Shown here one piece after another: positions 41,801 through 52,762 of a stretch of 64,000 nucleotides of DNA. The translations under genes were made by a program, and so were the position numbers. Location of the stretch: assembly GCF_029227855.1 (NCBI RefSeq), contig NZ_CP074356.1; one strand, 5' to 3'. The notes below the pieces were generated by a model. It worked only from the letters and a program-made list of their open reading frames with translations, did not search any database and had not been told where the DNA came from. Origin of the DNA: Escherichia coli. GTDB taxonomy: Bacteria > Pseudomonadota > Gammaproteobacteria > Enterobacterales > Enterobacteriaceae. Each line of letters starts with the position of its first letter. The first letter of the stretch is position 1.

Positions 41801-42043
41801 TCAGAAGTGACCGTCAAGGCGGTCACCGAACTCGATAATAAAGCGACTCATCCCTATCCGCCAGTCCTGAAGTGGCATCGTCCATTTTTGCGACGCTGAC
41901 TGGAAAGCCAGCCACACCACTTTTTTCACCGACTCATCTGTCGGGAACACTTTCCGTTTCTTTATCGCATGTGTGATGATGCTATTCAGCGATTCGATTG
42001 CGTTAGTGGTGTAGATAACCTTGCGGATCGCCTCCGGGTACAC
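41801..42043 (-). pseudogene. C-terminal fragment of an IS256-family (Mutator-type) transposase
   Basis: ORF track 80 aa ...YTTNAIESLNSIITHAIKKRKVFPTDESVKKVVWLAFQSASQKWTMPLQDWR... matches the conserved C-terminus of IS256-family transposases; the N-terminal ~300 aa are absent. Confidence 0.6.
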
Positions 42044-42120
42044 GAAGAATGTGGCAACATTCGGCCAGTTTGCCCGCCAGCTGCGACTTATCTGCGGGTA
42101 CCGTGCATCCCATTCCTTCC

Positions 42121-42143
42121 CAGGGAAAGATTACGAAAGCCCG
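42121..42143. repeat. 23-bp direct repeat, right copy
   Basis: cagggaaagattacgaaagcccg. Confidence 0.6.
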
Positions 42144-43263
42144 CTCCCCGCAAGGACTGACGCCAGATAGTTTCTGTCCATGGCTGCTTTTCGCATCTTA
42201 CGTCTTAACCCTGCCTTGAATACCTTATCATTCGTCAAAATATTAATAGCGATGTGCCGTATCCCTGAAAATAATTCTGCTGCATTTCCTCTTCTTATTT
42301 TGCAGTCGTCTTCATTCATTACCACGTCCAGACGCCAGTGCAGCTTATTCTCCACGTGCCAGTGGTTTCGGATTGCTGTGGCGAACTTCTCTGCGGTTAA
42401 ATCAGCAGAACTAATATAATATCTGACCGCCATTTCTGGCTCTTTCTTTTGTTCTGCTATTATTGACCGAAAGGAGACTGCCACGCATAATTTCTTCAGA
42501 CCTTTCCATTCAAACGTGAAATCAATAAGTTCATCAGGGACATCGCAAACAATGTGAAGACGGATTTCTTCTCTGCCGTGACTCTTTTCACTCATTGCGT
42601 AACTGTCATGCTCTGGATTATTTAATTCTTTCAGCGGAAATTCTCGAAGGCTTTATTTAGCCGCCCCTGGTTTCCTTTTACAGCGAATAAATAATCACCT
42701 CCCTGTTTTTGTATCTTCTCTGCAATATCTTTCTGGCAACCCATCGCATCAGTTGTGATGATTTTTCCTTTAATATCCAGCATGTTAAGAAGTTCTGGGA
42801 TAGCTGTAATTTCATTGGATTTCTCATCCGTCCTGATCTGTCCGATGACCAGACTGTGCATTGTTGAGAACGCACTAATGACATGAATCGCTCCCTTGCG
42901 GCGACTCTTGTCATAAGAATGCCGGAGTGTTTTTCCATCAATTGCGATGACGTCTTTATCATCTGAAGTATGGCAATCTCGCATCCAGTTAATAAAGCAC
43001 TCGTGAAATTTTGCAGGACTGATACAGGATACAACTCTGGCGATGGTATCGTGAACAGGAATACCATTTTAAAAATCACCGTATTGTTTTAAAAAATCGA
43101 GATGTGTTTCCCCAAAATCCTCTATATCTTCCCAACCTTCCGCACCCGAAATAACAGCACAAATAGTCAACAGTAGAATATCCGATAATTTATGTTCCAC
43201 TTTCCAGGCTTGTCTGTAATCGGGGATAATAGAAATATGCCCCATCAATTTTTTAAGTTCTAT
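42131..43263 (-). mobile_element. ISAs1-family (H-repeat) transposase gene, inactivated
   Basis: Track ORFs 42631-42984 and 42131-42595 are consecutive parts of an ISAs1/H-rpt transposase in different frames; hand translation of 43263-42985 gives the N-terminus with ATA in place of the first ATG (an in-frame Met codon remains at 43245-43243), and an in-frame TAA at 43071-43069. Confidence 0.8.
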
Positions 43264-43483
43264 TTTGTTCTCCTTAATTATGTAAGGAGTATTTGATCAT
43301 GTATAAGCAATAAAAAACAGCTTTAGGTAATGAGGAATATCTCAATTTTTAAGCATAAAATGCGAATTATTTAGTACAAAAAAGCAGCGTTACGTGATCT
43401 TTCCCTGCACTTCACCCTAACTTTAATTTAACTTCAAGAAGTATTAAGGCCTCAATAGCGAACTTAATACTTCTTAAAGAATA

Positions 43484-43861
43484 TCACTCCTGACCAAAAT
43501 CTTTCCACACTAATGCATGAGACTTTGATTTATCACCCAAAAATTTACTTACATCTTTCCAAAGTAAAGAATTGCTATCGGTCGCAGTGACTATTGCCTC
43601 TATAAGCCCTGTAGCTACAACTGTGGCCAATTCATCATCAATCGAGACCATACCATCTTCGACATGTTTAAATATTTTTTCTCTTTCAATATCACCCATT
43701 TCATAAAAATTTTTTACAATCGTTTTTCCAATCTGAGAGAACAACATAACCACCGGTGGAGTTTCTGGATGCCAGTATTCATTAGCTAATGAGACTGTCT
43801 CAGACAAAACAGTGGAAAACGATGCCATTTTTTCTATATAATTAGCAATATATTGGTTCAT
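43484..43861 (-). CDS. putative immunity protein for the Rhs C-terminal toxin, 125 aa
   Basis: ORF track; small AT-rich ORF whose ATG overlaps the rhs stop codon; classic effector-immunity arrangement; family unknown. Confidence 0.5.
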   Translation of the reverse strand: MNQYIANYIEKMASFSTVLSETVSLANEYWHPETPPVVMLFSQIGKTIVKNFYEMGDIEREKIFKHVEDGMVSIDDELATVVATGLIEAIVTATDSNSLLWKDVSKFLGDKSKSHALVWKDFGQE

Positions 43862-46800
43862 TACTTGCCTCCCAAAGCATTCTGTAAATCCTGAAGAACG
43901 TTTTCTGCTGCTGCTCGATCCCCTGGAGATGCTGTTGGATTCTTATCCAACCAATCCTGTAAAGCCCTTGTATAATCCTGTGCTTTCAATACATGTCCTC
44001 TACCACCAACTTTTTCACCTGTGGCCAATTCATAACGAACAGCATCTGCTGTGCTTCCACTTCCTACTTTTGCATTTGGCCGATAAAGATCGTCTATAAT
44101 ATTTTTCAAATTTGAATCTGTAACGTCAGGTTTTCCCATCTTCTGTCGCAATTCATCTTTATACCGTTCATGCTGCATACGATCTCTTGCGCTATTCTCA
44201 TCTTCTGGTCCCCATCCTCCCGGGCTTCCCGTACTGCCACCACCCAGGCAGTTCTTCTCTTCCTCCGTCAAATCCTTCCCGACATTTGGATTCTCTTTTG
44301 ATGAATCATCATTTCCAAACACGCTGGAAAAAGCACCATAGGGATCTCGCCAGAATTCCATTTGACTTTGTGCATTTAATAATTCGGCTTCACCCTGCAT
44401 CTCCATACTTTTCTCAATCGCGTCCCCAACAGCCTCGCGATTGTTGTATATTATTATACCACCACCAATAACCACCGTACCGACTGCCGCACCGACTAAC
44501 ATCCCCGGAGGGCCTCCTACCGAACCGATCTCTGTACCTACTTCAGAACCAGTTCCCATGGCAGTTAATGCTCCTGCGCCCAACGCCGCACTTAATCCCA
44601 GCGGATCCAGCCGTTGCACCGGGTTCAGTGGATACGCATACAGGTTCCATCCCCCCTTCAGCCCAATCGGATCCTGGGTGATATACCTCCCCTGTAGCGG
44701 GTCATAGTACCGGTGACGGTTGTAGTACAGCCCCGACTCCTCATCATACTGCTGCCCCGGCAGACGGAGTGACTGTTGAAGGTGCTGCGTGCTTTCCTCT
44801 CCCAGCAGGTTTCCCCACTCGTCATACTCCCCGCGCCACGCCGTTTCCCCTTCCGGGCTGATAAGCGCCTGCGGCAGCCCACGGTGGTCACAGTGGTAAA
44901 GATGAAGTTTCCTCTCCGGGATGTATTCCGCCTCCAGTTGCGCCGCCATCTGTTCCGCCGTCAACCCACACTGTGCAAGCCACTGCTGGCTTTCTTCACT
45001 CACGCTGCCCTGCCGCAGTTCCCGCTCCAGCCTCCCCAGCATCACCGCCAGCTCCGCCGGTAGCGTCACACCCGTGTCCTCCTGCAACACCTCCGCCAGG
45101 CTACGGTGCCGCGCCTTCGCCTGTTCGCCATTCTCTGTTTCGATTCTCAGGAGCGGCGTGAAGCTCCCCGGCTGGTATACCGTCTGGATACGCGTGGTGT
45201 CGGTCTGTACCGTCGTCAGCCTGTCGCCGTCCCACCCGTACCAGGTCACCTCCGGTTTACGCGACAGCGACATCCACCCCGTCAGGTCACGCTCCCGCCG
45301 CCACACCCGTTTTCCCGTCCGGCGGCCCAGCGGGTCATAGAGGTAGCGGCTCTCCACCTGTGGCTCGCCGTGCTGTATCCGCGTGTAGAACACCAGGCGG
45401 TGCTGGCTGTCGTAATGGTAGTGGTGCGTCCGCTCGTCGTGCATCCGTATCACCCCTTCCGGGATACGGTCCGTCTTCTCCGCCAGCCTGCCGTATTCAT
45501 CGTAGCGGTAGACATAGTGCGCATCTTCCGTGATGCGGTTATCCGGCCACGCCGTGAGGGTGCTGTCCGGGTGCAGTTCCGGGTCCGGCAGCCGGTTTCC
45601 TGCCGGGTCCGTCGCATACGGGATATCAATGTCCAGGTTCGCTGCCGTGGTGTGGACGCCCGTCAGCCTTCCCGTGTCGCTGTAACGGTACTCCCGGCTC
45701 TCCTGCGGGCCGCTGATGCGAATTAGCTGTCCGTTGTCGTTCCAGTCGTAGTCACGGTCAAGCTGCGGAAGGTTCAGGTGCCTGCTCCGGAGCTGGCCGC
45801 TGGTATTCCAGGCGGTGGCAAGCTCATATGCCTCCCCGCCGAAGCTGCGGGCCGTCTCACGGTGCAGCCGGTCCCGCGTGTACTCGACCAGTGGCGTACC
45901 ACCCAGCTTCATTCCCGCAAGATAACCGCTGCCATACGTCAGCCACTCCACCGGCGGCAGACCGTCCAGCTCCTGACGGGTCGCCAGCCCCTGTTCGCTG
46001 TACGCGTGCTTCGTCTCATGCTCCCACAGCATCTCCCCCGTCTCCGGGTTCTCCACCGTCTGCCGTTCGCCCGTCAGGCGGCCTTTATCGTCGTGGCCGT
46101 AGTGGACCGCCACACGGTGGCCTTCGCTGATATGGCTGATTTCTGTCAGCCAGCCGTGCTCATCATACTGCCACTGCTCCGCCGGGTCGCCGTTCACCGT
46201 CCGGTGCGTGATGCGGTCCGACGCATCGTAATGCCAGAGGGTGATAAGTCCCTCGTCTTCACTGTGGACAAGCTGCCCTGTGGCGCTGTACCGGTAACGC
46301 TGCGTCCTGCCGTCAAAGCCGCGCTGCTCCGTCAGCCTGTCCACCGGGTCATACCGGAACGTGGACTGGCTGCCGTTCTCGTTGGTCAGCACGGTGATGC
46401 GCCCGGCAGCGTCATACCCCATGCTGCGCGTCAGACCGCCTTCCGTCACACTCACCGGACGCCCGCGTTTATCATATTCGATGGTGCTGCGTTTACCGTC
46501 CGGTGATATCGTTGCTGTCAGGTCGCCTGCGGCGCTGTACTCATAACGGGTTTCACGCCCCTGCGCATCCTTCTGACTGACCAGTTGGCCTCGCGGGTTA
46601 TAACTGCTGTAAGTGCTGATGCCTTCCTCCCGGTGAACGGCGATTTGTTGACCGTACCGGTCATACTCATACCGCGTCATGTACCCCGAGCAGTCCGTGA
46701 AGGCCCGAAGCTGACCGTACCGGTTTCGCGTTATTCTCCGCGTCACCCCGATTCCGTCTTCCACCGCGCCGGGCAGGCTACTGCGGGGGGAGTCATAAAA

Positions 46801-48360
46801 CCAGCGCGTAATGTTACCGTTGCGCGAGATCTCTTCTGCCAGTCGGCCCTGACGGTCATATTTCCGGCTGCTGCGTAAACCATCCGGATATGTCACTGAA
46901 GTCAGTTGCAACTGGCTGTTGTAACCATACCGTACCGTCCTGCCGTCCGGCAGTATCACTGAAGTCAGCTTTCCAGACGCCATATGCAGCCGGTACTCCG
47001 TCCGCCGTCCTGCCGCATCCGTCTGCGCCTTCAGCCTCCCCGCCTCATCATACTCGCTGCGGGTGATGCTCCCGTCGGCATGCTCCTTCTTCACCACACG
47101 CTTCAGGCCACCCCCGCCTTCCGTGTACAGCACCTCCCGCCGGTTCAGGCTGTCCGTGATGGTCACACGGTCCTGCCCGTACTCAAAGCGGTAGTCCAGC
47201 CCCTCCGGGTTGACCTGCTCCGTCACCCGCCCGGTATCATCATACCGGTAGCGGCTCTCCGGCCTCCCTGCATAATGGTGCGCCACCATCCGCCCGGCGT
47301 GCTCCGCATCATAAGTAAACCCGCGCACCTGCGTCCCGCTGCGGTCATACACCGCCCGCAGTTCTCCGCTGGCCGTGTACGTATAGCGCGCCAGCGGCGC
47401 AGTCGGCTGTTCATCCGGGTATGCCGGGTCGTGTGTCAGCCACACCGCCTCCAGCCGGATACCGTTATCGGCACCGTATTCTGTACCGGCGGGCAGCGTA
47501 TCGGGGAAAACCTGAGAAGAGGAAACAGAACGGGGACCGGCTGGAGAAGATAAAGAAGAGGCGCGCTGTTTACGGAAGGCTTCCGCCCGCTGCGCCTGCG
47601 TGCTCAGCGCCAGGTGAAAACAGCGGCCCGCGCCGTCCGTCACCCCCGTCACCGCACCCGCCACGTCACCCTCTGCCGCCCGGTGGAAGGCCAGCGTCCG
47701 CCCGAAGCCGTCCACCACGCCCGTCAGCACCCGGTATGCGGGCGGCTCCGGCGGCAGCACCTCGTCCGCCCCCGGCACCCGCTCCGGCCAGCCGAGCACC
47801 AGCCACTGCCCGGTTGTGCTGGCAGCCATCATATAGATGTGTGGACTCAGACGGACCGCTTCCGGCAACGCCCGCCAGAGCCGCGCAAGCGGGTGGCCTT
47901 TGTGCTGTTTCAGCACCCCGCACCGCGCCAGCCAGAACGACTCGCTGCGGCTGTAGCTTATCTCGCCGGGAAACAGGGGTTCAAAGTGAATGCTCCTGCC
48001 GCCGCTGTCGTTGAGTATCAGGCCTTCATCGCGTATCTGTAAGCGGATATCGAAGGGGGCTTTCCAGCCGGGACCAAACACCCCCACCGGCGCGGGCGTC
48101 CTGGTCCGGTAGCTGCTGTAGGCGCGGAAAAGAACAAACGGCAGCGGGCCGGACAGTGCCAGGTCGGTTTCAGCAGGCAGCACCTTCGCTCCCAGCAGCG
48201 GGTTTACCGGATTGCCATATTTCGGCGTGGCTTCCCCTGTGGGACACACCGAGCAGGCCACACCGGTTGGCGCACCTATCAGCACCCCTGCTGAACCCTG
48301 CACAATATCCAGTCCCTTGCGGGTCATGTCACCCTGCCGCGCCGCCGGTTTTCCACCCAT
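43861..48360 (-). CDS. rhs: PAAR-domain Rhs (YD-repeat) polymorphic toxin, 1499 aa, with variable C-terminal toxin domain
   Basis: ORF track; N-terminal PAAR motif ([11 protein letters not shown]...), long YD-repeat core, DPLGL core-end motif at 44593-44607 followed by a ~243-aa C-terminal domain of lower GC. Confidence 0.9.
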
Positions 48361-48435
48361 GAATCAATTCCTTCTGCTTTTAATATGGTTTATCTGGTCA
48401 CTGCACCAGTTCCGTTTTAATTTTTTGCACCTGAC

Positions 48436-50577
48436 TCAAAATTGCCGCATATCCGGCATTCCGGGGGGTAAATCTTTCGGCACAGGCGCATCCGGTACAG
48501 GTTGTGTGGCACCACAGTTCCAGTTAATCACCGGCGCATCACCGTTCACATCCGACTCTCCTTCCAGATGAATGTGCGTACCATTGAGAAATATGCTTCC
48601 GTCCTTCGTCAGCACCAACCTTGCCTTACCGCAGCAGAGTTCCAGATGCTCACCGGCAGAATAAACTGCTGTTTGTCCGGTGTTTTCCTTCATCGTCTTG
48701 CCCACCGAGAAGGTGACGTTATTCCCTACATTGACGCTGTAGCCCATTCCCACCATCAGTGATTTATGCAGCCCTACCTGTGAGGACTGCAACAACGCCA
48801 CCGAGGTATTCATGATGCCGCCTACCGTCGTCTGGTAAGCCACGCCCACCGTCAGCGCACGAATGATCCCCACCTTTTCAACCTGGTTTGAACCCACTTT
48901 GACAATCTGGTTGCTGCCTACCGTTTCCACCTGGTTGACACCAACCGTCTGTATCTGATTAACGCCAATGTTCTGGATCTGGTTATTGGTAACGGTGATC
49001 GCCTGGTTGTTACCTATTTTTTCGGCATGGTTGTTTATCACATCAGTGGTACGGTTATTCAGCACCTCGGTGTTCATGTTCTTCTGCGCGTGGATGTAGA
49101 CCTGTTCTTTCCCTGTCGCATCGTCAAACTTCAGTTCATTAAACCCGCTGCCCTTATAGGTTTTTGAACGAATGGTCATCTGCGTCTTTGTTCCCGGCAG
49201 GCTGCCGGGGGTGCGGTTTTCCTGGTGGTAGGTGCGCCCCATAATAATCGGCTGGTCCGGATCGCCGTTGAGGAAGTCCACAATGACTTCCTGACCCACA
49301 CGCGGTATCGCCAGGTTGCCAAAGCCGGTGCCTGCCCACGCCTGTGCCACACGGATCCAGCATGAACTGTCCTGGTTTGACGGGTTATAGCGGTCCCAGT
49401 TAAATTTCACCCGCACGCGGCCATGTTCATCACAGAAGATTTCTTCTCCTGCCGGTCCCGTCACGACGGCGCTCTGCGGGCCGTCCACCAGCGGTTTCAG
49501 CAACGGCTGTGGCCGCCATGTTCTGTCTGCCGGTATTACCGCAAAGTGGTTATTCAGCGTGGTACCTGAACCCCTGCGTCCCGGCACCGCCTGCGGCTGC
49601 TCGCCGTGCAGTTCACTTGCCACCACCTGCCATTCCCGGTTCAGGTTCGCCTGCGGATGCCCCGTCAGCGCAATTCGCCGTCCCGGCCATATCTCCGGCG
49701 AACGGCTTGTTCCGCGCGCCACTTCTGCGTTGTTTCGCCAGCCATCCATCTGCCAGCAGGCAAAGTTCTGCCCGTGGGCACCCTTGAAACGTCCGGGGTA
49801 GTCATACACTTCATACTGTGTGCGCTGGTAATCCTGGTGCTGGCCTTCCTGATCAAAACGCCCTGCCCAGCCGGGTCGTTTAAAGGTGTAGTCTTTGGTC
49901 ACCACGGAAGATGGGCGGATTTGTGCGCTGTAGAGGAACTGGCTGATGCATAGGGTGCTCACCTCGGTACGGGTGTTCGGATTCCAGGGGATCTCAAAGG
50001 ACTCCGGCAGATAACGCACGGTGTCGCACAGGACCAGGCTCTGGTCGGTACTTTTTTGCGCGTGCTCCTCATAAAAGAAGATGCCTTCCTCCGCCGCCAT
50101 CCGGCACAGGAAATCGTAATCGGTTTCGCCGTACTGGACACAAAACTCACGGGAAGGATGCGGCTCGCTGAACAGCGGACTCCACTCGGTCACCCCGTTT
50201 TCTTTCAGGATCGTCGCGAGTATGCTTTCGATGTCCTCATTCTGGAAGATACGGAAGTTCTGGCGCAGCCCTGTGCGCCACAGCGGTGGGCACACCTTCA
50301 TGCTGTACAGCATCTGGTTTTTGTCGTTCTCCCCCAGTTCAAACCAGGTCACCACACCTTTCACCCGGCGCTGTACGTCATCGCCCTGCCATACCGTCAG
50401 GTAGGCCATTTTGTCCAGCACCTGCGCAAATTCAAGGGAGAGAAACTGCTGGCTGACCAGAGAGAGATCGAGGGAAAAGAGCGAAGAGAGTGACTGGTTC
50501 AGATGAAAGGAGACCACCGCAAACGCGTCCGGTGGCAGGCCGTCCACTTCCAGCGTGAAACGTAATCCGGTTGACAT
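48436..50577 (-). CDS. vgrG: T6SS spike protein VgrG (TssI)
   Basis: ORF track, 713 aa; gp27/gp5-like sequence and beta-helix repeats (…VGSNQIVKVGSNQVEKVG…). Confidence 0.9.
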   Translation of the reverse strand: MSTGLRFTLEVDGLPPDAFAVVSFHLNQSLSSLFSLDLSLVSQQFLSLEFAQVLDKMAYLTVWQGDDVQRRVKGVVTWFELGENDKNQMLYSMKVCPPLWRTGLRQNFRIFQNEDIESILATILKENGVTEWSPLFSEPHPSREFCVQYGETDYDFLCRMAAEEGIFFYEEHAQKSTDQSLVLCDTVRYLPESFEIPWNPNTRTEVSTLCISQFLYSAQIRPSSVVTKDYTFKRPGWAGRFDQEGQHQDYQRTQYEVYDYPGRFKGAHGQNFACWQMDGWRNNAEVARGTSRSPEIWPGRRIALTGHPQANLNREWQVVASELHGEQPQAVPGRRGSGTTLNNHFAVIPADRTWRPQPLLKPLVDGPQSAVVTGPAGEEIFCDEHGRVRVKFNWDRYNPSNQDSSCWIRVAQAWAGTGFGNLAIPRVGQEVIVDFLNGDPDQPIIMGRTYHQENRTPGSLPGTKTQMTIRSKTYKGSGFNELKFDDATGKEQVYIHAQKNMNTEVLNNRTTDVINNHAEKIGNNQAITVTNNQIQNIGVNQIQTVGVNQVETVGSNQIVKVGSNQVEKVGIIRALTVGVAYQTTVGGIMNTSVALLQSSQVGLHKSLMVGMGYSVNVGNNVTFSVGKTMKENTGQTAVYSAGEHLELCCGKARLVLTKDGSIFLNGTHIHLEGESDVNGDAPVINWNCGATQPVPDAPVPKDLPPGMPDMRQF

Positions 50578-50746
50578 AGCAACCTCCGGGTTTAAGGAAA
50601 AACAGACAGTTCGCTGTTAAAGCGGCTGTAACAGTACAGTGTTACGCTTGCGTTCAGGCACGCTACCGCCGAAGTTTCCGGCATCCGCCATCTCCCGTGA
50701 ACGTAACCCCTTACTGACAACCTTTCTTTTTACGGCGTAATACAAA

Positions 50747-50778
50747 AACAGCATCCGGCCTAATAGCCGGATGCTGTT
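50747..50778 (-). terminator. Rho-independent terminator downstream of hcp
   Basis: 13-bp perfect inverted repeat aacagcatccggc / gccggatgctgtt with loop ctaata; on the minus strand it is followed by a T-rich run. Confidence 0.7.
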
Positions 50779-50786
50779 GGCTTAAC

Positions 50787-51305
50787 TTATGCTTCCAGCG
50801 GTGCGCGCCAGTCGTCGGCACCGGAGGTGCCAGACTTGACGTGTTCCCACTCTATTTTGCGGTAGGCCAGTGAAACTTCGAGCAACTGGGTGAACTCGCG
50901 TTTCGCCGGATCCTGGCAATGCGGCATATGCAGTTTCATATCGACAATCGTCGAATCGGTCAGGCGGGTGGTGAAATAATGCTCCTGTTTGCCTTCCACA
51001 GAGGTACGCCACCAGTGAAGTTCAGTGGTTGGCAGCATTTCGCCGGAGGCCAGTGCGTTGTACATCAGCGGAACAGCTTTGTTCAGCGCCACGGTAAAAA
51101 TGAACGGCTTGTGAGCACGCTGACCCGCAGGCTGGCCGGACTGAGGATCGGTCGGGACAGTAACGTTATGCAGGAATTCCTGCACCAGCATCTCGTCTTC
51201 GTGCCCCTGCACATAGATGTTGCCGACAGAATCAGCGGTAAATGCACCTGCAGTAATATTTCCCTGGGTCTGACCAGTGATGGAGATATAACACGGTGTT
51301 GGCAT
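50787..51305 (-). CDS. hcp: T6SS tube protein Hcp (TssD)
   Basis: ORF track, 172 aa, MPTPCYISITGQTQGNITAGAF... Confidence 0.9.
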   Translation of the reverse strand: MPTPCYISITGQTQGNITAGAFTADSVGNIYVQGHEDEMLVQEFLHNVTVPTDPQSGQPAGQRAHKPFIFTVALNKAVPLMYNALASGEMLPTTELHWWRTSVEGKQEHYFTTRLTDSTIVDMKLHMPHCQDPAKREFTQLLEVSLAYRKIEWEHVKSGTSGADDWRAPLEA

Positions 51306-52001
51306 TTGTAAACTCCTTGTTAACGTGGTTAATTACTACTTACAATGACCTGCCGTTAATCCCAGACAGGCAGATGCAGCTCACTTCACGGAACCGCATC
51401 ATTTTTCAGTATTTTTTACATACAAACCGAGCTAGAATTTACGGTTGTCGTAAAAACTATTTTTAAAATCATTAAATCTCTTATTCAGCAATAAGTTAAT
51501 AATATATATCTGGATAACCACACCCAACTATTCAAAGTCCGTATTGCCTCCATAAAATGGCCAAAGCTGAATCATGAATAAATATTGTATTTATCCTTTC
51601 TGAATTATCATTTTGATAATTTTTGAGATATTCCTTAAAAATACCCACTTAATCAATCACAAAACAAATATATAAACAAGCAATCATCAGATTAGCTTAT
51701 GTTTAATGAAATTATTTTATAATTCAATAAGTTACACAAAGTCTCTGTATTTAAATTATTGCCATAATACACCTGACGCGAATTGCACAGGTTCACACAA
51801 TCTATTTAACGCTTGCAGAATACCCCTCTTTACGATCGATAAAAAGTCCTTTTCTTATTTATTTTGAAGCGTAGAATGCGGGGTGATGAAGGAGTGGTGA
51901 TTTTATTTTCACCGCCATTATGGCGGCATTGCCGATATTTTTTTGCGGTACAAATATGCCGTGTTCATGGCCTGTACGAGATAACATGACGGATCACTTT
52001 T
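51306..52001. promoter_or_regulatory. AT-rich divergent control region between hcp and tssB
   Basis: About 700 bp, strongly AT-rich, between divergently transcribed hcp and tssB; GATC sites at 51835 and 51991; specific promoter elements not resolved. Confidence 0.4.
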
Positions 52002-52537: not shown

Positions 52538-52762
52538 ATGACGGCACACAAAAATATCTCCGGGACATACCACCTCTCTGTTGCAGACATTCTGCAGGTG
52601 GTTTACCAGGTATGTTTCAGCCCGTCCGTTGAAATCAACCAGGATGGTGTGGCTGCGCTGATTACAACACTGGATCGCCGTATCAGTGATCTATTGGATG
52701 AGATTATCCATTTTTGTGAGTTTCAGCAGAGCGCGTCGCACTGGCAGCGCGTACTTCACTGA
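52538..52762 (+). CDS. 74-aa ORF resembling the N-terminal segment of TssC (possible gene fragment or small paralog)
   Basis: ORF track; ...ITTLDRRISDLLDEIIHFCEFQQSASHWQRV parallels tssC ...IADIDERISRQMDVIIHAPAFQQVESFWRSL; weak Shine-Dalgarno; coding status uncertain. Confidence 0.3.
   Translation: MTAHKNISGTYHLSVADILQVVYQVCFSPSVEINQDGVAALITTLDRRISDLLDEIIHFCEFQQSASHWQRVLH

Follow-up and report, generated by a model that had tools for sequence, protein, structure and literature searches.

How is an Rhs effector that follows vgrG immediately, carries a PAAR motif at its own N-terminus and has no adaptor gene beside it loaded onto the spike of a T6SS? The window analysed here, the whole stretch of 64,000 nucleotides, is E. 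coli chromosome with a T6SS-2 island adjoining the Flag-2 lateral-flagella cluster. Annotation was available from a 99.9%-identical genome for window positions 1-49954 and from a 98.8%-identical strain for positions 33968-64000. An earlier note on this DNA had read the Rhs N-terminus as a PAAR fused directly to Rhs, on which delivery by this VgrG would rely alone.

The vgrG-rhs locus is an unremarkable toxin module of the E. coli T6SS-2, of the hcp-vgrG-rhs-immunity kind described before (Table 1); its layout has been published for EHEC (z0266-z0269) and is thus already known. The first gene of the hcp-vgrG-rhs operon is hcp, and the hairpin that separates it from vgrG is probably h3R, the hcp3-vgrG3 regulatory element described in EHEC (PMC13141884). 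VgrG has Phage_GPD, Phage_base_V and Gp5_trimer_C domains, the gp27/gp5 core and beta-helix of a TssI protein, and its C-terminus carries a GDxPxINWNCG motif (aa ~679-689) and a proline-rich tail. Gene calls bear out the gene coordinates, the 75-bp gap and the direct vgrG to rhs adjacency reported in the earlier note, and its statement that no separate adaptor or chaperone gene lies between the two also stands, the gap leaving no room for one. The spacer is in frame with both genes and contains two in-frame stops. Downstream, the AT-rich immunity gene (36% GC) encodes a protein with a weak match to DUF7674 (20.7 bits, cutoff 27), and the transposase pseudogene beyond it is annotated in the 99.9%-identical genome as "ISAs1 family transposase, frameshifted; internal stop". 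In 1739 of 5426 complete genomes, a single place covered 80% or more of the 8-kb hcp-vgrG-rhs query. The locus is thus a common E. coli effector module with a published layout, and of little importance in itself.

Table 1. Features of the hcp-vgrG-rhs locus, in window coordinates.
Feature	Position	Strand	Evidence
hcp (TssD tube protein)	50787..51305	-	TIGR03344, 207 bits (cutoff 58.9); Pfam T6SS_HCP, E 5e-31
Hairpin between hcp and vgrG, GC-rich, 14-bp stem, then T-run	50747..50778	-	Terminator-like scan
vgrG (TssI spike, 713 aa)	48436..50577	-	TIGR03361, 625.8 bits (cutoff 186)
vgrG-rhs spacer, 75 bp, with AAGGA ribosome-binding site	48361..48435	-	Direct sequence reading
rhs, intact, 1499 aa	43861..48360	-	NCBIfam RHS_core (NF041261), 2498.8 bits (equivalog cutoff 2000)
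Single PAAR repeat, Rhs aa 1-29	48274..48360	-	Sub-threshold PF05488 match; alignment to repeat 3 of full-PAAR relatives
Tether, Rhs aa 30-50, conserved ACSVCP motif	48211..48273	-	Homology to Tse5-NT aa 29-47
DUF6531, N-terminal cage plug, aa 49-126	47983..48216	-	Pfam PF20148, E 6.5e-18
Rhs core, aa 1-1256, YD-repeat cage	44593..48360	-	NF041261; 10 RHS repeats; Rhs_assc_core aa 1179-1256
Gly-rich hydrophobic stretch, aa 1262-1306, start of C-terminal toxin region	44443..44577	-	Kyte-Doolittle
C-terminal toxin domain, aa 1390-1499, five-helix polymorphic-toxin module	43864..44193	-	Homologues; AlphaFold2 pLDDT 92.9
Immunity gene, putative cognate, 125 aa	43484..43861	-	ORF; position 3' of toxin; 1-nt overlap of start with rhs stop
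ISAs1/ISEc1 (H-repeat) transposase pseudogene, flanks Rhs element	42131..43263	-	DDE_Tnp_1 fragments

The literal PAAR motif is present at the Rhs N-terminus as P5-A6-A7-R8, and no other motif resembling PAAR or prePAAR occurs in any of the six frames across the 64 kb; the full PAAR domain, or cap, that the earlier note had supposed there is not borne out. The Pfam profile PF05488 (PAAR_motif) matched the N-terminus with 14 bits (cutoff 27; E 0.062), over aa 2-29 only and profile positions 21-51 of 70, and the full-length Rhs gave no Pfam PAAR match at E<=0.01. Relatives with three repeats score 64-140 bits with the same profile, and in the clade alignment Met1 of Rhs aligns with the start of their third repeat. 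Weak matches to solved structures fall on the same part of the fold: the Rhs N-terminus aligned with aa 70-98, the last repeat, of the PAAR-like tip SalCis10 (E 0.32), and a clade relative with aa 67-93, also the last repeat, of 4JIV (E 0.56). Rather than the canonical three-repeat cone of ~70-95 aa in a single chain, only one repeat was found. By these alignments, Rhs aa 1-29 makes up a third of a PAAR and corresponds by homology to repeat 3, the final one, of canonical PAAR domains. The DxxxH zinc-ligand position is occupied by K15 and there is no His within aa 1-50; Cys36 and Cys39 are conserved, but they are located in the tether.

The one-repeat form occurs in 113 of the 126 N-terminally intact clade representatives. 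Its sequence is conserved among 76 distinct N-termini, with G3, P5, A6, R8, D11, G22, S23, V26 and G29 invariant in the clade alignment, and the vgrG to rhs adjacency, the two genes 46-113 bp apart, recurs in E. albertii, Citrobacter, Phytobacter, Trabulsiella and two metagenomic lineages; the PAAR motif and the layout are therefore not due to chance. A single-protein scan of genome contigs yielded 22 close loci, and the three-repeat relatives were reached by an exhaustive search of representatives. In both forms vgrG lies directly upstream with no gene between. The three-repeat PAAR-Rhs relatives (for instance P0199 and P0180, metagenomic) have a homologous tether, PVNP junction, DUF6531 plug and cage, with vgrG 52 bp upstream and a homologous VgrG C-terminus that includes a GDxxxIxWNxG motif. 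They differ in ~60 extra N-terminal residues that form PAAR repeats 1 and 2, and in having His, His and Cys at the three DxxxH positions, whereas the one-repeat E. coli Rhs has K15. The VgrG C-terminal motif is kept in the partners of one-repeat and three-repeat Rhs alike; searching for homologues of the VgrG C-terminus brought up only 22 short fragments, not enough to align usefully. A mis-called start hiding upstream repeats was rejected on account of the in-frame stops 5' of the ATG, and at 13 other loci no in-frame PAAR-coding sequence was found upstream. The VgrG C-terminus was also rejected as the source of the missing repeats, the partner VgrG of a three-repeat Rhs having the same C-terminal organisation.

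No gene for Eag/DUF1795, DUF4123, DUF2169 or a separate PAAR protein was found in the 64-kb window, and no adaptor or chaperone gene in the remainder of the T6SS-2 island as present in the 98.8%-identical strain; the search for Eag/DUF1795 and DUF4123 genes elsewhere in the island that the earlier note had proposed thus came back empty. That note had also named TM helices together with a prePAAR motif as the signs of a missing chaperone, and neither was detected. No TM helix was predicted in Rhs aa 1-300, where the 19-aa hydropathy maximum is 1.28 (below 1.6). A regular expression for AARxxDxxxH found no occurrence in the six frames of the window, K15 standing in place of the His, and the N-terminus has no prePAAR_I Pfam match. 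These absences of adaptors, TM helices and prePAAR are direct observations, as are the gene order, the gap, the domain content and the one-repeat PAAR. Because its N-terminus is free of a transmembrane segment, Rhs delivery is, as far as the sequence tells, without need of an Eag/DUF1795 chaperone, and none is encoded in the window or island.

Behind the repeat, the tether (aa 30-50) is predicted to thread into the Rhs cage below the DUF6531 plug. Cleavage may occur between N50 and P51, before the PVNP sequence (P51, V52, N53, P54) that is invariant in the clade alignment. The claim that PAAR is fused to Rhs accordingly holds in part: the motif is at the N-terminus, but homology to Tse5 makes cleavage of the first 50 aa probable. 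In the mature protein they would be severed from the cage yet held non-covalently, so "fused" may not apply. The Rhs core (60-67% GC) ends in the autoproteolysis motif ...RLDPLGL and is recognised by TIGR03696 with 86 bits, as expected of an Rhs core. Beyond it, aa 1285-1306 form the sole TM-like segment of the protein (19-aa Kyte-Doolittle peak 2.16). The C-terminal toxin domain has 107 homologues, which occupy the C-termini of Rhs, CdiA(VENN), PAAR and pre-toxin-TG proteins, and no above-threshold Pfam or NCBIfam match was obtained for the toxin region or the immunity protein. The domain is a widely shared, uncharacterised polymorphic-toxin module.

We consider it likely that this Rhs is a Tse5-type effector of a standard T6SS-2 spike-effector operon, loaded by a delivery peptide of ~50 residues. 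VgrG docking, threading, N-terminal cleavage and C-terminal release are modelled here on Tse5 and on knowledge of the family. The aa 1-29 repeat, outside the cage, would dock onto the tip of VgrG, whose gene lies 75 bp upstream, while the aa 30-50 tether would enter the YD-repeat cage, be gripped by the DUF6531 plug, be cut at its junction with PVNP and remain bound. The hydrophobic toxin region would be enclosed by the cage, which would thereby act as its chaperone. After firing, autoproteolysis after ...DPLGL would free a toxin made up of a Gly-rich, entry-like segment and the five-helix domain, from which the 125-aa protein encoded by the next, overlapping gene would shield the producer.

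Several observations count against this model. The cone on top of a VgrG trimer has three sides, which a lone PAAR repeat cannot build; the model therefore gives no structural account of docking. In addition, K15 occupies a zinc-ligand position. In EHEC, expressing VgrG3 and PAAR-PAARI together led to no secretion and no killing, and H-NS keeps T6SS-2 silent in vitro (PMC13141884). Threading and N-terminal cleavage are extrapolated from Tse5, whose N-terminal peptide has diverged, though the relationship is still recognisable. A linked AlphaFold2 model of the VgrG tip with Rhs peptides (the last 80 aa of VgrG and Rhs aa 1-33, each in triplicate, GGGGS linkers, 17-row alignment) reached a mean pLDDT of 29.8 and was not usable, so it speaks neither for nor against docking or a trimeric cap.

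A complete canonical PAAR domain capping VgrG by itself, as the earlier note had it, would fit the literal tetrapeptide and the weak similarity to PAAR proteins, and the EHEC literature does name the gene PAAR-Rhs. We nevertheless hold it to be very improbable: the PF05488 match is below its cutoff and covers ~30 of 70 profile positions, merely ~29 residues stand ahead of the cage tether, true three-repeat relatives score far above that cutoff with Met1 aligned to their third repeat, and stops interrupt the frame upstream of the ATG. Almost no credence can be given to the idea of a prePAAR/TMD effector that lacks its Eag chaperone gene or has it at another place. AARQGD (aa 6-11) is similar to AARxxDxxxH over its first half, but the last motif position is K and the motif occurs nowhere in the window; moreover, aa 1-300 show no TM helix, there is no downstream PAAR domain or prePAAR_I match, and a DUF1795 gene is absent from window and island.

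The repeat could instead be vestigial or auxiliary, with loading through contacts between the cage or plug and the VgrG C-terminus (its GDxPxINWNCG region or proline-rich tail), or with a stand-alone PAAR protein from elsewhere in the genome capping the spike. The inability of one-third of a PAAR to cap a trimer and the conservation of the VgrG C-terminal motif speak for this, as does the presence of A. baumannii Tse15 (8uy4/8uxt) among the structural homologues. Tse15 is a PAAR-less Rhs effector that binds VgrG by other surfaces. We judge this rather unlikely, as the repeat is strongly conserved with its nine invariant residues, and its retention at the extreme N-terminus in 113 representatives argues for a function; the Tse5 N-terminal peptide is described as needed for secretion (PMC10684867), and no further PAAR is encoded in the window or island. 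It is quite improbable that the one-repeat peptide is, rather than a degenerate PAAR, a distinct loading device, in which three Rhs peptides would form a trimeric cap or a single repeat would bind one face asymmetrically; in the trimeric variant the peptides might be contributed by separate Rhs paralogues or by rhs genes in tandem. If true, this would be a spike-loading mode not yet described, and it would account for the dominance of the one-repeat form in the clade and for the many E. coli "orphan" Rhs that share this N-terminus. A small but concrete and testable question is by what means, and in what stoichiometry, a single repeat of ~29 residues brings a 160-kDa cage to a trimeric spike.

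Among chaperone-dependent systems, Salmonella Rhs1-SciW and P. protegens RhsA-EagR1 (PMC7773334) are likewise Rhs cages loaded on VgrG via an N-terminal PAAR-related region. They differ in having AARxxDxxxH, one or two TMD regions, a full downstream PAAR and an adjacent DUF1795 gene, all of which are absent here. The closest solved structure is P. aeruginosa Tse5 (8cp6, E 1.2e-116), and alignments to its chains A and B demonstrated that the E. coli Rhs has the same one-repeat PAAR-like architecture. Tse5 shares a "cryptic PAAR-like" N-terminal peptide of ~47-50 aa, a G-x-PVNP junction, the DUF6531 plug and Gly-rich hydrophobic segments of the C-terminal toxin kept inside the cage. Its shell chain begins at PVNP, corresponding to P51, and the locus order VgrG1c(PA2685)-Tse5(PA2684)-Tsi5 matches the vgrG-rhs-immunity layout. 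In Tse5-NT, disorder extends over aa 1-29 and the plug anchors aa 30-47 in the cage, with the cut between K47 and P48 (PMC10684867), and Tse5 is delivered via the adjacent VgrG1c with no chaperone or Eag named (PMC10684867; PMC12133291). In contrast to the E. coli Rhs, Tse5 has PVSH without the literal PAAR letters, K47 rather than N50 before the predicted cut, and a 149-aa pore-forming toxin rather than a 243-aa toxin region with an extra five-helix domain.

The T6SS-2 operon of EHEC O157:H7 EDL933, hcp3(z0266)-vgrG3(z0267)-paar rhs(z0268)-paarI(z0269) (PMC7216683; PMC13141884), shares species, island, gene order, Rhs core family and a short N-terminal PAAR motif right after vgrG; it too has an hcp-vgrG intergenic hairpin and no adaptor gene. 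Its toxin/immunity pair differs, z0269 being a 203-aa SLR/TPR protein unrelated to the 125-aa protein here. The EHEC literature treats the Rhs N-terminus as a PAAR domain, whereas we resolve it as one repeat of three. This corrects the literature: what is named "PAAR" in E. coli-type Rhs proteins amounts to a third of one, homologous to its last repeat, and relatives with all three repeats still exist.

The rhs gene follows vgrG directly in the T6SS-2 island, as the earlier note had proposed for a PAAR-motif Rhs behind a 75-bp gap, and both the gene coordinates and the spacer sequence bear this out. The spacer reads TGA-(72 nt)-ATG, with AAGGA 8 bases 5' of the rhs start; rhs and vgrG share a reading frame with two stops between them, and the spacer holds no gene because 75 bp is too short. 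The Rhs protein comprises DUF6531 (aa 49-126), ten RHS repeats and an Rhs-associated core with ...RLDPLGL at its end. GC content is 60-67% in the Rhs core and drops to 36% across the toxin tip and immunity gene, the classical Rhs signature. ISAs1/ISEc1 (H-repeat) remnants are typical beside Rhs elements; here the stretch between the transposase pseudogenes contains no orphan rhs-CT/immunity cassettes.

Features of the hcp-vgrG-rhs operon and its downstream flank
Feature	Position	Strand	Details
hcp	50787-51305	-	
vgrG	48436-50577	-	713 aa; TIGR03361, 625.8 bits vs cutoff 186
rhs	43861-48360	-	1499 aa; NCBIfam RHS_core equivalog, 2498.8 bits vs 2000, aa 1-1256
Gly-rich TM-like stretch	44443-44577	-	Rhs aa 1262-1306; directly after DPLGL cleavage motif
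C-terminal polymorphic-toxin domain	43864-44193	-	~105 aa; Rhs aa 1390-1499
Putative immunity-gene ORF	43484-43861	-	125 aa; start shares 1 base with rhs stop
ISAs1/ISEc1 (H-repeat) transposase pseudogenes	41801-43263	-	directly downstream of immunity gene

An 8-kb hcp-vgrG-rhs-immunity query matched E. coli chromosomes, with a match in 4153 of 5426 complete genomes, coverage of at least 80% in 1739 of these 5426, and identity of at least 99% in 162 records. Strain JNEC-KY178 is 99.9% identical to the window over both stretches searched (8000-32000 and 43400-51400), and its annotation (window 1-49954) runs from a Flag-2 lateral-flagella cluster through housekeeping genes yafL to yafV into the T6SS-2 island; for tssB-tssH, on the right side, the annotation is that of strain 144 (98.8% identity across window 33968-64000). 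The Flag-2 cluster (lafA, flg, fli and flh genes) is complete in window 1-33900, adjoining the island; its flhB carries a frameshift according to the annotation of the 99.9%-identical genome, and only remnants of the cluster are present in strain 144. Between tssB and tssC, a 74-aa ORF (52538-52762, +) weakly resembles the TssC/VipB N-terminus (E 5e-4 to 3e-3) and may be a TssC/VipB fragment or duplication. The vgrG-rhs architecture is already known: publications on EHEC EDL933 (PMC7216683; PMC13141884) list this operon as hcp3(z0266)-vgrG3(z0267)-'paar' rhs(z0268)-paarI(z0269), with reference to Journet & Cascales 2016 and Ma et al. 2017.

A strong hairpin (14-bp stem plus T-run, 50747-50778, -) lies directly past the hcp stop, 170 bp before vgrG, and is probably the hcp3-vgrG3 intergenic element (h3R) reported in EHEC to limit vgrG expression. 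Promoter-like sites within the rhs 3' end, upstream of the immunity gene (44096-44124 and 43847-43875, -), fit the report of an internal start of transcription at EHEC paar/paarI.

The earlier note had delivery rely on a PAAR cap, and a complete cap is not what the sequence encodes. The Rhs N-terminus amounts to the final third of a PAAR, and so is a PAAR domain only in part. Full-length Rhs gave no match to Pfam PAAR_motif at E<=0.01; the isolated N-terminus scored 14 bits, below the cutoff of 27, and aligned aa 2-29 to profile positions 21-51 of 70. Weak matches to proteins of solved structure involve their final repeat: Rhs aa 1-29 match the SalCis10 tip protein (aa 70-98 of 99, E 0.32), and the clade relative P0231 matches V. 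cholerae PAAR 4JIV (aa 67-93 of 93, E 0.56). The short one-repeat N-terminus is real, conserved and dominant in its clade. Searched exhaustively, 1.84 billion representatives gave 486 relatives, of which 126 align with an intact N-terminus; 113 of these begin no more than 4 residues from this Rhs's Met1 and 7 carry an extra ~47-60 N-terminal residues; the longer relatives have three PAAR repeats (64-140 bits, vs 14-29 bits for one-repeat forms). The clade alignment places Met1 in column 64, where repeat 3 begins, and G3, P5, A6, R8, D11, G22, S23, V26 and G29 are invariant. All 76 distinct one-repeat N-termini share an M-x(1-3)-KPAAR-like start, and in-frame upstream PAAR-coding sequence is absent at 13 loci. 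The DxxxH Zn-ligand position is K15 in this Rhs and variable across the clade, which argues against a Zn-centred homotrimeric cone.

Chaperone independence, also put forward earlier, held up throughout the island. Annotation of the near-identical genomes lists no DUF1795/Eag, DUF4123, DUF2169 or PAAR genes for the window. Beyond it, strain 144 carries tssM, VasL, a second hcp and three hypothetical proteins, with no Pfam matches to adaptor, chaperone or PAAR families among these island genes. Six-frame motif scans of the 64 kb found one PAAR-like motif, that of the Rhs N-terminus, and zero matches to AARxxDxxxH. Hydropathy over the N-terminal 300 aa of Rhs peaks at 1.28 (19-residue window), and therefore no TM helix is predicted there; the sole TM-like segment of the protein, aa 1285-1306, is within the C-terminal toxin region. 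The prePAAR motif and N-terminal TM helices that would imply a missing chaperone are therefore both absent.

One-repeat rhs genes also lie directly downstream of vgrG in E. albertii, Citrobacter, Phytobacter, Trabulsiella and two metagenomic lineages (gaps 46-113 bp), the remaining copies being orphans or members of tandem rhs-immunity arrays. The three-repeat relative P0199, part of a T6SS cluster, likewise begins 52 bp downstream of vgrG and lacks an adaptor, and the C-terminus of that VgrG is organised in the same way, GDxxxIxWNxG included. Direct vgrG-rhs coupling is thus ancestral, and VgrG shows no visible compensation for the lost PAAR repeats. Tandem rhs-immunity-rhs-immunity arrays of one-repeat Rhs occur at three loci from metagenomes or other genera, after a single vgrG (L036), with vgrG downstream (L030) or with no vgrG (L037), raising the possibility of several Rhs sharing one spike. 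Residues 14-19 (48304-48321, -) are RKGLDI in T6SS-2-linked E. coli and E. albertii Rhs and mostly x-x-GG-[PS]-I in orphan E. coli Rhs and other genera; this difference may be a VgrG-specificity determinant, with few independent pairs for co-variation.

The toxin region (aa 1257-1499) begins with the Gly-rich hydrophobic stretch, and aa 1354-1434 are similar (E 9e-6) to the region ahead of the CdiA-CT UPEC536 toxin domain; the pair resembles a module for membrane entry or translocation that stays within the cage. The C-terminal domain has no Pfam or NCBIfam family. It recurs C-terminally in Rhs, CdiA(VENN), PAAR and pre-toxin-TG proteins of Enterobacteria, Gilliamella, Vibrio, Neisseria, Cupriavidus and Parachlamydia. 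Its AF2 model is a confident five-helix bundle (pLDDT 92.9), weakly resembling the fold of the CdiA-CT UPEC536 tRNase.

On the best-supported reading, this protein would be an Rhs effector specific to its VgrG and independent of chaperones, with hydrophobic cargo shielded by the Rhs cage instead of an Eag protein. A linked-chain AlphaFold model of the VgrG tip with Rhs N-terminal peptides reached a pLDDT of only 29.8, too low to speak for or against docking. EHEC showed neither secretion nor killing, even with VgrG3 and PAAR-PAARI in trans (PMC13141884). Among solved structures, P. aeruginosa Tse5 (8cp6, E 1.2e-116) is the closest; its N-terminal chain, MSGLPVSHVGEKVSGGVISTGSPTVHVGSSAVGLADRVSACVPLVGK, likewise consists of one repeat plus a tether, and its shell chain starts at PVNPMLGSK, the counterpart of Rhs P51. 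By cryo-EM, Tse5 residues 1-29 are disordered and residues 30-47 sit within the cage, anchored by the DUF6531 plug; cleavage occurs at K47|P48 and is not required for killing (PMC10684867). By homology, Rhs aa 1-29 would be an exposed VgrG-binding element and aa 30-50 a tether, with N50|P51 a likely cleavage site. The Tse5 N-terminal peptide has been described as a 5-kDa PAAR-like domain required for secretion (PMC10684867), elsewhere termed a 'cryptic PAAR-like' domain (PMC7376260), and VgrG1c, encoded beside Tse5, is its export partner (PMC12133291).
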